From Gammaproteobacteria bacterium (GTDB lineage: Bacteria > Pseudomonadota > Gammaproteobacteria > UBA4575): a stretch of DNA of 64,000 nt. The notes beneath the pieces are model-generated. The model did not search any database and was not told the DNA's origin. It worked only from the letters and a program-made list of their open reading frames with translations. The position numbers and the translations under genes were made by a program. The stretch's first letter is position 1; each line of letters opens with the position of its first letter. The stretch spans positions 910,491 through 974,490 of the forward strand of contig CBDEUS010000002.1 in assembly GCA_965243395.1 (NCBI GenBank). The letters are read 5' to 3'. This document shows, piece after piece, positions 59,908 to 62,558 of the stretch.

Positions 59908-61173
59908 TTAATTAATACAACTTCTTTTAATTCCGTATCTACCAATACAATAAAATATAAAAAACATAATAAATAAAGCAATAGATAAAATTAAATGTAT
60001 ATAAAGCGTGTTGTGACCATATAAATACATTAAAACAGCTAAAATAAATAACAGTACAAAAATTAGTATCATCGAAATTAAACGTAACACCAAGTCAAAT
60101 GAGGTATGTAAAGCTTGATAAAAACCTAAAAAAAGTGACGCACACTGACTAATGGCAATAATAATCATATATAGCATTAGACCTGAATATGAATCTGGCA
60201 GTATAAATTCTGTTATATATGCGTAGATAATAGTTAAAAATAGAATACCTAGTCCATACACTCTTAAGCTTTTTGACGCTTCTGTAATTCTATTTTGTAA
60301 TTCAAAATAATCACCATTTGCTAATAATTTTAAAACTATAGGTGTATTTTGAGCTATTATTGCAGATCGTGCAGCTTGAAAGGGTACGATAACTTTAAGT
60401 GATATTGCTAATACTGCTGCTTCTTTAAGTTCGCCCAAACTTCGCAAAAATGGAATTATTCCGCTCTGAAATAAGGACACAAGCAAAGTCAATATAACGT
60501 ATGACAAATGATCATAATGTGTACTGATTACGTCACGTGCTTTAATCTCTGTATCTTCGAATTTAAATTTTTTACTACTAGTACCCTTAAATTCTAATTT
60601 AATTAGTATGAACGATAATGTGCTAGACAGAATTAGGGACATCGTAACTAATATCAAAACTAAATTAAGATTTAATGGAAAAATTATATAGAGAATAATC
60701 GTAGATAAATGTGGTAGAACACCTCCTACAAAAATTGACCATCTCTGAATCTCAATACTTTTTAGTACTGTTTCTCCAAAACGTAGTAGAGATGTTAAGA
60801 GTGAGATCAACATTACGAATATAATTTCGTAATTCAATAAATTTGTCAGCTTTAAAAATAAACCTAAGGCAAGCATGAAAATGCATGAAATTAGTATTAT
60901 TTTTGTATAGTGCCATATCAAGAATTTTTTATGCCCTTTGCTTTGTAAACGAGGAATATTCCTCATACTAAGACCAGGACACCCTAACCCTAAAATAACA
61001 GCTATAATCGAAGCTAATGCGAGAACGGATGCATAAATTCCAAATTGACTGACACTTAATTTATTAGCAAGAATAATTATATTCAAATATGCTAGCAATA
61101 TGCCCAATATGCGGAGCGAAAAAATCTGAAAACTTAAGTCAAAATAACTTAGTACTTGTTTTGAAAAACTCAC
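59908..61173 (-). CDS. polytopic membrane protein, Wzx-like oligosaccharide flippase (MOP superfamily), putative
   Basis: The 421-aa ORF is highly hydrophobic with about 12 predicted TM segments. It sits in a sugar-biosynthesis context and has very low GC. Confidence 0.45.
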   Translation of the reverse strand: MSFSKQVLSYFDLSFQIFSLRILGILLAYLNIIILANKLSVSQFGIYASVLALASIIAVILGLGCPGLSMRNIPRLQSKGHKKFLIWHYTKIILISCIFMLALGLFLKLTNLLNYEIIFVMLISLLTSLLRFGETVLKSIEIQRWSIFVGGVLPHLSTIILYIIFPLNLNLVLILVTMSLILSSTLSFILIKLEFKGTSSKKFKFEDTEIKARDVISTHYDHLSYVILTLLVSLFQSGIIPFLRSLGELKEAAVLAISLKVIVPFQAARSAIIAQNTPIVLKLLANGDYFELQNRITEASKSLRVYGLGILFLTIIYAYITEFILPDSYSGLMLYMIIIAISQCASLFLGFYQALHTSFDLVLRLISMILIFVLLFILAVLMYLYGHNTLYIHLILSIALFIMFFIFYCIGRYGIKRSCIN

Positions 61174-62558
61174 ACAGATACTTCTATTCCATATTCAGTT
61201 GAATTTATATTATATGTAGCACAAAGAACTTCATCCAAATTTTGATTATTTTTATTGATGTAATCCTCTACCAGAGCATCAACTTCAGATTTTGTAAATC
61301 CTTCATCACTTCCATAAAAATTATCTGTAACATATTCAGAATTTTTGTTTTTTAATATACCTAGATTTTGTAAATTAAACAGCGCATTAGCCAATAACTG
61401 TTTAAGATAGAATATATTAATTGTTTTTGTAACTCTTGCTTTATCTCTAAGTAAGTTTGACCATCCACCCTCATTTCTTTCGAGTATATGGCATAGCGCA
61501 TAATAGGTTCTAGGTATGGACAATCCCAGATGAGTTGAAAACAGATCTCGCATGCCTATTTCAACTTGCTCCGTTTGCTGAATGAAAGTGTTATTTTGAA
61601 TTGCATCAAAATTATTAATAAACTTATCAGGTTTTACAAAGTTATAATACTTATAATGTTCACGCCAGTGGCCAGTATAATCATCCAATAAATCTAGGCA
61701 ATAAACTCTTTTGCCCGCTAAAACACTTTCAAAAAAGGATGTTGAGAGAAACTGTGCAATGACATCTGTACCCGCAATTATTTTTGAGAAGGGTTCGTGT
61801 TGACTAATTTGGATATTATTTAACTCCAAAAGTTTAGAGTAAGCCTCTATGGGTTCGCCAGGATGTAGTCTTACAATAATATTACAAGATGGGTGATTCT
61901 TAGCAATCGTTTCAATAACATTATAGAATTTATTAAAAGCTTTAGAATAAAATTCCCTTAAGTTATATTTTTTATCATATTTATATACTTTAAGTATTTT
62001 TTGGTACTCAGTATCTTGTATATTTGCAAGTGTAAAATCAGAGACAAAAACAATTTTATTTTTTTTATCCTCTGAAGAGCTAATTGGAGATTCTTTAGTA
62101 CGATTCAGTAAATCAAATTTCGGGCATCCAGTTATATATATGCGATTGGGATTAATTTTAGCTTTCTTAACTAACAGCTCTGCCAGCTTTTTACCCCATA
62201 CAATGTGAAAATCTACATCTCTGTTATATTCACTTAGTGCATTTAAATTTAACTTCTCGTTATAAAATCTCTTATCAAATAGTTGTTCACTATGCCACTT
62301 TACAAGCTTGGCATTACTAAAATACTTCCAGGCTAAGGTGTAGTGTGTCCTATTGCTATTATAAGATGGTGTAACAAGTATATTAGATTTTTTTTTAATT
62401 GTTTTAACAAACTCAGTTCGACCATTAAGCCAAATAGGGTCTTGATATGTGGGGTGTAAATCTATTCCACCATTCTTCTCAAATAAAGATTTCAGTATTA
62501 CTATATATGGTAATTCTCGAAGTTTAGTATCAATTTGTATAGTAATATTCTTTTTCAT
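61170..62558 (-). CDS. putative GT-B-like sugar/nonulosonic-acid transferase (capsule-synthesis KpsS/TagF-like; RLHP motif), function uncertain
   Basis: The 462-aa soluble protein is translationally coupled to the flippase gene. Its IVRLHPGEP motif is reminiscent of the HP motifs in KpsC/KpsS/TagF-type transferases. It sits next to a nonulosonic acid synthase. Confidence 0.35.
   Translation of the reverse strand: MKKNITIQIDTKLRELPYIVILKSLFEKNGGIDLHPTYQDPIWLNGRTEFVKTIKKKSNILVTPSYNSNRTHYTLAWKYFSNAKLVKWHSEQLFDKRFYNEKLNLNALSEYNRDVDFHIVWGKKLAELLVKKAKINPNRIYITGCPKFDLLNRTKESPISSSEDKKNKIVFVSDFTLANIQDTEYQKILKVYKYDKKYNLREFYSKAFNKFYNVIETIAKNHPSCNIIVRLHPGEPIEAYSKLLELNNIQISQHEPFSKIIAGTDVIAQFLSTSFFESVLAGKRVYCLDLLDDYTGHWREHYKYYNFVKPDKFINNFDAIQNNTFIQQTEQVEIGMRDLFSTHLGLSIPRTYYALCHILERNEGGWSNLLRDKARVTKTINIFYLKQLLANALFNLQNLGILKNKNSEYVTDNFYGSDEGFTKSEVDALVEDYINKNNQNLDEVLCATYNINSTEYGIEVSV

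Follow-up and report, generated by a model that had tools for sequence, protein, structure and literature searches.

Known nonulosonate transferases and the protein under study

Far more is known about the pathways for pseudaminic and legionaminic acid than about the enzymes that transfer these sugars. The transferase classes described in the literature searched comprise the flagellin-modifying Maf and FlmG, KpsS1 (GT118), and a type from Tannerella that is known from genetics only. In Tannerella forsythia, the O-glycan loses its terminal pseudaminic or legionaminic acid derivative on knock-out of Tanf_01245 or TFUB4_00887, and complementation and cross-complementation showed that these enzymes are required for its addition (PMC5420450). 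BFO_1060 is the orthologue of these proteins in strain 92A2, and the Tannerella enzymes contain HP and D/E-D/E-G motifs and show TagB/GT-B similarity (PMC5420450). Here, a gene related to this type is described from a gammaproteobacterial contig (CBDEUS010000002.1), of which a stretch of 64,000 nucleotides, hereafter the window, was analysed. The gene (61170–62558, minus strand) is an uninterrupted open reading frame with an ATG start and encodes a protein of 462 residues. This protein would be, with a probability of about 0.65, a glycosyltransferase (GT) that depends on the cytidine monophosphate (CMP)-linked form of pseudaminic acid, and is most likely a divergent new member of the known, poorly characterised Tannerella-type/TIGR04396 GT-B nonulosonate transferases. 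This reading is based on the predicted GT-B fold, the homology to the Tannerella enzymes, the conservation of motifs and the adjacency to pseI, from which the donor, the roles of the residues and the acceptor are deduced.

The first-pass annotation, made from the letters of the window alone, had described a soluble protein with an RLHP motif between a nonulosonate synthase and a flippase. The open reading frame, motif, solubility and neighbours stand, whereas the tract coordinates, the suggested phase variation and the supposed lack of a GT-B match, all treated below, do not. Regarding solubility, the Kyte-Doolittle mean never exceeds 0.99 in any 19-residue segment, and the protein is therefore considered to have no transmembrane segment.

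The 462-residue protein is comparable with Tanf_01245, TFUB4_00887 and BFO_1060 in length (442–445 residues in the Tannerella enzymes), the absence of a membrane segment, the HP motif and TagB/GT-B similarity. The Tannerella enzymes are likewise encoded beside nonulosonate biosynthesis genes (PMC5420450). In contrast to them, the 462-residue protein has no literal D/E-D/E-G upstream of HP; its sole DEG (residues ~428–430) belongs to the C-terminal extension and lacks conservation, and the conserved acidic site of the N-terminal domain is S-E91-Q. Furthermore, the present host is a gammaproteobacterium, and the locus carries a Wzx-like gene instead of the Bacteroidota general O-glycosylation system.

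Similarity to the retaining CMP-ulosonate transferases KpsC/KpsS (GT107), WbbB (GT99) and KpsS1 (GT118) is found in the R/K-x-H-P plus S...E donor-binding segment. KpsS1 is a pseudaminic acid transferase and catalyzes the same reaction as that predicted for the 462-residue protein (PMC12887879). Maf and FlmG use the same class of donor sugar, according to the literature, but belong to unrelated families that act directly on flagellin; the protein showed no similarity to them, and flagellin genes are absent from the vicinity. The GT-B sialyltransferases with an HP motif (GT38 polysialyltransferase, GT52 and GT80) resemble the protein less in structure than the TagF-like enzymes do, and none of them matched it by sequence. 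TagF, TarL and the polymerase domain of Bcs3, which transfer polyol phosphates from cytidine diphosphate (CDP)-polyols, share only 10–12% identity with the 462-residue protein, which has no Glyphos_transf (PF04464) match, and CDP-polyol synthesis genes are absent from the locus. On these grounds and those given under the alternative functions, a TagF-type phosphotransferase was rejected as the first choice.

Family placement and predicted fold

The best family match of the protein is the uncharacterised NCBIfam subfamily TIGR04396, named "surface carbohydrate biosynthesis protein" (E = 3.5e-31, 108.8 bits, profile positions 1–367 of 427). NF046086, the BFO_1060 family glycosyltransferase, is matched over almost its entire length (E = 7.1e-25, 87.9 bits, profile positions 4–363 of 365, query residues 7–358). 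TIGR04396 is matched by each of the 57 aligned relatives, and NF046086 by 52 of them. Word-indexed protein searches, including those with profiles, gave just 9–12 relatives; the family was revealed by an exhaustive profile search of cluster representatives, which yielded 4142 at E ≤ 1e-3, of which 55 remained at E ≤ 1e-30. Since BFO_1060-type enzymes are genetically proven transferases, this homology supports the first-pass proposal that the protein attaches the product of the NeuB-family synthase.

Other searches with the 462-residue protein were uninformative. Pfam gave sub-threshold noise only (CRAL_TRIO_2, DCAF15, Abi_alpha), a single-sequence search of Protein Data Bank (PDB) sequences gave no match, and tblastn against plasmids gave none. 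A few relatives weakly match other GT-B families, namely, Epimerase_2, DUF6716, Glyphos_transf and Capsule_synth. Neither a Capsule_synth (PF05159) match nor the modified GT-B fold with an inserted helical subdomain, which characterize GT107 and GT118, was found for the protein; therefore, membership in the KpsS/KpsC family was rejected. None of the 150 listed representatives fitted a Tannerella enzyme by length and DXD position.

The AlphaFold2 model, built from the 57-sequence alignment, has a mean predicted local distance difference test (pLDDT) score of 92.6 and a predicted template modelling score of 0.92. It comprises two Rossmann-like domains (residues ~1–160 and ~165–345) joined by a low-confidence linker (pLDDT 59–72), followed by a helical C-terminal extension (residues 347–462) with a terminal beta-hairpin, which is conserved in the nearer relatives. 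As modelled, this is a canonical GT-B fold with an interdomain cleft, and the earlier statement that the protein has no obvious match to the common GT-B enzymes was wrong at the fold level. The nearest solved structures are 2-epimerases of uridine diphosphate N-acetylglucosamine (UDP-GlcNAc) and the transferases TagF, TarL and Bcs3. The match scores were 17.7 for UDP-GlcNAc 2-epimerase (1v4v), 17.5 for TarL (8va1), 17.3 for Bcs3 with CMP (8a0c), 16.9 for NeuC, 15.8 for TagF and 11.9 for the polysialyltransferase 5wc6. The profile and structure comparison that had been suggested as a check returned homology to TIGR04396 and BFO_1060 with TagF-like fold neighbours, but not membership in the GT107 or TagF families.

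Conserved residues and motifs

Conservation was assessed on 145 full-length family representatives. In the N-terminal domain, R14 (94%), E91 (98%), W121 (97%) and G144 (99%) are conserved, and E91 is invariant in two broad family alignments. The C-terminal domain contains R230 (92%), H232 (100%), P233 (99%) and E235 (90%) of the HP motif, which lies within IVRLHPGEP (residues 228–236), and S272 (71%), T273 (75%) and E277 (93%) of the STSFFE segment. Only two kinds of PDB sequence were found by the family profile, KpsC (GT107, E = 0.016) and WbbB (GT99, E = 0.065), both of which are marginal. These alignments span query residues 205–286; in KpsC, VKVHP aligns with RLHPGE and TSQYGFE with STSFFE, and the corresponding segments in WbbB are VRAHPG and NSSVGLE. 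[quoted passage not shown] Therefore, the alignment of the HP and S...E segments is taken as motif-level evidence for a CMP-linked donor, not for membership in the KpsC or WbbB families. Of the nucleophile motif QxxxD/QxxxKD that marks the retaining Kdo transferases of GT107 and GT99, no QxxxD was found among columns at least 70% conserved, and the KpsC and WbbB alignments start downstream of the expected position of this motif. The first-pass view that the RLHP segment resembles KpsS/KpsC/TagF-like transferases is borne out insofar as TarL, Bcs3 and TagF have the closest transferase folds and KpsC and WbbB align over RxHP(G) and S...E, but the protein is not a member of these families.

Gene context in relatives

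The gene immediately upstream on the same strand encodes PseI, the pseudaminic acid synthase, scoring far over the TIGR03586 cut-off of 340 bits and below the cut-off for NeuB proper. Orthologues with 69–81% identity to the 462-residue protein are found in syntenic loci of uncultured Thiotrichales and gammaproteobacterial genomes; the locus search, performed with a narrow alignment of relatives, recovered close orthologues only, in genomes and metagenomes. The gene order in these loci is GT2, DUF354, pseB, pseC, a NeuB paralogue, pseF, pseG-pseH, pseI, the orthologue of the 462-residue gene, a Wzx-like gene, GT4 and pilBCD. One of them, L002, encodes PseB, PseC, PseF, a PseG-PseH fusion and PseI. 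PseB, PseC, PseG and PseI score over the NCBIfam cut-offs, and PseF (190.6 vs 205.7 bits) and the PseH half (46.4 vs 93.1 bits) fall just under theirs. All six steps to CMP-pseudaminic acid are covered without the 462-residue protein, and transfer is the step left without an enzyme. The association extends to distant relatives. Two family members with 24–25% identity (P0061 and P0157) are encoded directly after pseI inside pse clusters, and a third (P0011) is encoded two genes past the gene for a NeuB-family synthase, the score of which is under both the PseI and NeuB cut-offs. A Herbaspirillum homologue, a member of TIGR04396, is located just downstream of neuABC (PMC6679464).

Several observations weigh against the assignment as a pseudaminic acid transferase. 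The TIGR04396 score is a near miss (108.8 vs the curated cut-off of 125 bits), and the NF046086 score (87.9 vs 200 bits) makes the protein a distant relative of the BFO_1060 family, outside the curated family. The top structural neighbours include 2-epimerases, which are not transferases, and the clade of the 462-residue protein is known from sequence and model alone. Only pseI among the pse genes is visible within the window, which ends at 64000. For the closest non-syntenic relatives, the Ketobacter clade with 40% identity, nonulosonate genes are missing within a distance of 10 kb; their genes follow wzi-wza-wzc in a sulfotransferase-rich capsule locus. Another clade (P0009/P0010) adjoins GT4 and acetyltransferase genes instead of pse genes, and a longer P0009 contig adds an FnlA-like dehydratase. 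Considering the contexts of these two clades, donor specificity need not be uniform across the family. As a speculation, the Ketobacter context would be reconciled by a donor that is drawn from a housekeeping pool, for example, CMP-Kdo.

In Ketobacter alkanivorans (L001, 10001–21392) and a related metagenomic contig (L008, 3917–15308), wzc is followed directly by the gene for the homologue with 40% identity. This capsule locus also encodes a Wzy-like polymerase, a Wzx homologue and two or three sulfotransferases, and it has no nonulosonate genes.

The orthologous loci also show variations of their own. A second NeuB-family gene lies between pseC and pseF (L002 5490–6551, L003 5510–6571, L005 5198–6259 and L012 ~5496–6554); its product of 353 residues has no SAF domain, is ~30% identical to PseI and scores under the PseI and NeuB cut-offs. 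In L005 (6958–8706) and L011 (7247–8946), the pseG-pseH fusion (L002 7249–8814) is replaced by separate pseG and formyltransferase (Formyl_trans_N) genes, suggesting an N-formylated pseudaminic acid derivative in those lineages. Upstream of pseB, L002 (1–3224), and also L003, L005 and L012, encode a protein of 645–650 residues resembling tetratricopeptide repeat (TPR) proteins, a GT2 enzyme and a DUF354 protein faintly similar to Epimerase_2. The 645–650-residue protein has a weak ChAPs/TPR_19 match only and could matter for the target of glycan attachment. L012 further contains, on the opposite strand at 14190–14606, a degraded second copy of the transferase gene that aligns with residues 37–178 at 49% identity; as several stop codons interrupt it, this copy is a pseudogene remnant beside the island.

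Alternative functions

The alternative that survives best is that the protein is a GT-B transferase of the same locus with another donor, the candidates being housekeeping CMP-Kdo and a CDP-polyol of the type used by TagF and TarL, and that a different enzyme attaches pseudaminic acid. The best structural matches include TarL, Bcs3 and TagF, one of the 57 relatives matches Glyphos_transf at 4e-7, and the Ketobacter-clade relatives have no nearby nonulosonate genes. In addition, the orthologous loci hold further candidate transferases, namely, the GT2 and GT4 enzymes, the DUF354 protein and the TPR-like protein of about 650 residues. However, synthesis genes for CDP-glycerol or CDP-ribitol were not seen in the window or the orthologous loci. 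Three independent lineages have the gene attached to pseI, a fourth has it at a distance of two genes from the one for a NeuB-family synthase, and the named homologous family is that of the Tannerella nonulosonate transferase. Enzymes of GT2 and GT4 normally take nucleoside diphosphate sugars instead of CMP-ulosonates. A transfer from another donor is thus regarded as unlikely, although clearly ahead of the remaining alternatives.

A function outside sugar transfer is very improbable. The 462-residue protein could be a nucleotide-sugar-modifying enzyme of the UDP-GlcNAc 2-epimerase/NeuC type that participates in precursor synthesis, as 2-epimerases are its top fold matches. However, Epimerase_2 (PF02350) gave no match to the protein at E ≤ 1, let alone at the gathering score, and the sequence identity to epimerases is 9–15%. 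The pseudaminic acid pathway requires no 2-epimerase, and it is already complete in the orthologous locus. Moreover, the invariant residues show the HP plus S...E pattern of CMP-dependent transferases. The assignment as a CMP-pseudaminic acid transferase is accordingly preferred to both alternatives; the first-pass interpretation anticipated this function, and its fold placement and its suggestion of phase variation did not hold.

Proposed mechanism

As a pseudaminic acid transferase, the protein would be a cytoplasmic, metal-independent GT-B enzyme that takes CMP-pseudaminic acid, the sugar being made by the adjacent PseI. The donor would bind to the C-terminal domain, where H232 and R230 may contact its phosphate, and S272 and T273 at a helix N-terminus together with E277 may contact phosphate and ribose in the manner of other GT-B enzymes. 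The N-terminal domain would bind the acceptor. E91 of the HSEQ loop is a likely general base for deprotonation of the acceptor hydroxyl, and R14 is a likely ligand for a carboxylate or phosphate. Judging from the Wzx-like gene that follows with an overlap, an undecaprenyl-diphosphate-linked oligosaccharide is the probable acceptor. The sugar would be transferred to this lipid-linked oligosaccharide at the inner membrane face, and the translationally coupled Wzx-like protein would then flip the product.

Poly-A tracts

The gene contains two homopolymeric runs, T9 and T8 on the plus strand, which correspond to A9 and A8 on the coding strand (Table 1); the positions given at first, 62378–62386 and 62060–62067, were off by 10 and 1 bases, respectively. 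These runs had been proposed as possible slipped-strand phase-variation sites, with the remark that such tracts are also common by chance in AT-rich DNA. The remark proved correct. The gene has 30% G+C, vs 38.5% in the whole window, and encodes 9.7% lysine, with AAA and AAG used 33 and 12 times. Synonymous shuffles that keep the protein and the codon usage of the gene contain a mean of 1.6 A runs of at least eight bases; the probability of two or more such runs is 0.55, and that of an A run of at least nine is 0.45. The runs are poorly conserved. At the A9 site, L002 has A9, L012 has A8G, L003 and L013 have AATAAAAAA, and L005 has AGAAAAAAA; at the other site, A8 is present in the window only, with A7 at most in the orthologues. 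The reading frame is kept in each of the six orthologous sequences, and length variants are absent. Thus, the A9 and A8 runs are what is expected by chance in AT-rich, lysine-rich coding DNA. Switching of expression at these sites, which would be independent of the enzyme function, is highly improbable: two of the 10 A/T runs of at least eight bases in the window do fall in this 1.4-kb surface-glycan gene and L002 also has A9 at the same site, but the runs merely encode KKK and KK, shuffles yield the same number, and substitutions break the tracts in L003, L005, L012 and L013.

The locus and its surroundings

The coordinates of the features are summarized in Table 1. Downstream of the 462-residue gene, the Wzx-like gene encodes a polytopic membrane protein with a Polysacc_synt (Wzx-type) match of E = 5.9e-6, under the gathering score. 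Its GTG start overlaps the stop of the 462-residue gene (junction GTGA), and the 4-nt overlap also occurs in the orthologous loci, suggesting one operon and translational coupling. The flanking genes thus agree with the synthase and flippase named at first, the latter through a weak match.

Table 1. Features of the 462-residue transferase gene and its neighbours in the window
Feature	Position	Strand	Basis
pseI, pseudaminic acid synthase, immediately upstream	62672..63739	-	TIGR03586 476 bits; NeuB and SAF Pfam domains
462-residue GT-B glycosyltransferase, cytoplasmic, probable CMP-pseudaminic acid transferase, divergent in the TIGR04396/BFO_1060 superfamily	61170..62558	-	
N-terminal Rossmann-like domain (residues ~1–160), presumed acceptor side, with R14 and HSEQ loop	62079..62558	-	model secondary structure; R14 and E91 conservation
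A9 run, encodes K55–K57	62388..62396	-	
HSEQ loop (residues 89–92), E91 as candidate catalytic base	62283..62294	-	E91 conservation
A8 run, encodes K165–K166, low-confidence interdomain linker	62059..62066	-	
C-terminal Rossmann-like domain (residues ~165–345), presumed CMP-sugar donor side	61524..62066	-	model; KpsC/WbbB alignment, residues 205–286
IVRLHPGEP, R-x-H-P-G-E (HP motif), after beta-strand 226–230	61851..61877	-	conservation; KpsC/WbbB alignment
STSFFE (residues 272–277), S/T at helix N-terminus then E277, presumed phosphate and ribose contacts	61728..61745	-	conservation; KpsC/WbbB alignment
C-terminal helical extension (residues 347–462) with terminal beta-hairpin	61173..61520	-	model; outside NF046086 match 7–358
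Wzx-like polytopic membrane protein, probable flippase	59908..61173	-	weak Polysacc_synt; 124 hydrophobic windows; junction sequence

The fall in G+C starts near 59.7 kb and persists to the end of the window, and low G+C is usual in surface-glycan islands. After the Wzx-like gene, the window contains pilB, pilC, pilD, coaE and zapD. The low-GC glycan island (~59700–64000, about 0.29 vs 0.39) directly abuts pilBCD, with pilB at 57757–59475; neither a pilin gene nor a tRNA gene was found at this junction. The target of the island glycan may be pilin, lipopolysaccharide or capsule. Scanning the island for Rfam families and tRNAs gave no hits, and promoter and terminator scans performed no better than shuffles.

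Two differences from the syntenic relatives are seen at the edges of the island. The 261 bases upstream of pseI (63740–64000) are non-coding with 20% G+C, up to the end of the window, unlike L002, in which the pseG-pseH gene stops 4 bp before pseI; therefore, the remaining pse pathway in the source genome may be arranged differently. Between the Wzx-like gene and pilB, every syntenic relative carries a gene for a GT4 glycosyltransferase, instead of which the window has just 432 bp of non-coding DNA (59476–59907), where tblastn detected no remnant. Accordingly, the source genome should make a different glycan.

Significance

For this locus, the annotation changes from "hypothetical protein" to a specific enzyme prediction, and the unsupported claim of phase variation is removed. 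The 462-residue protein, which is soluble, confidently modelled and provided with the candidate catalytic residues E91, R230, H232 and E277, would lend itself well to experimental work. Such work could yield the first biochemical and structural data on the Tannerella-type/TIGR04396 superfamily, and the enzyme could serve in chemoenzymatic pseudaminylation. The protein also presents a possible link between canonical GT-B enzymes and HP-motif Kdo transferases. As a more tentative idea, which is rather unlikely at present, its clade may represent an uncharacterised family of CMP-ulosonic acid transferases in which a TagF/epimerase-like GT-B scaffold carries the RxHPG...S(x)3E segment of the GT99/GT107 beta-Kdo transferases, and in which Ketobacter-type members would use housekeeping CMP-Kdo. 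If so, the clade would be an evolutionary bridge to the GT99/GT107 beta-Kdo transferases, the origin of which has been described as unclear (PMC10148158).

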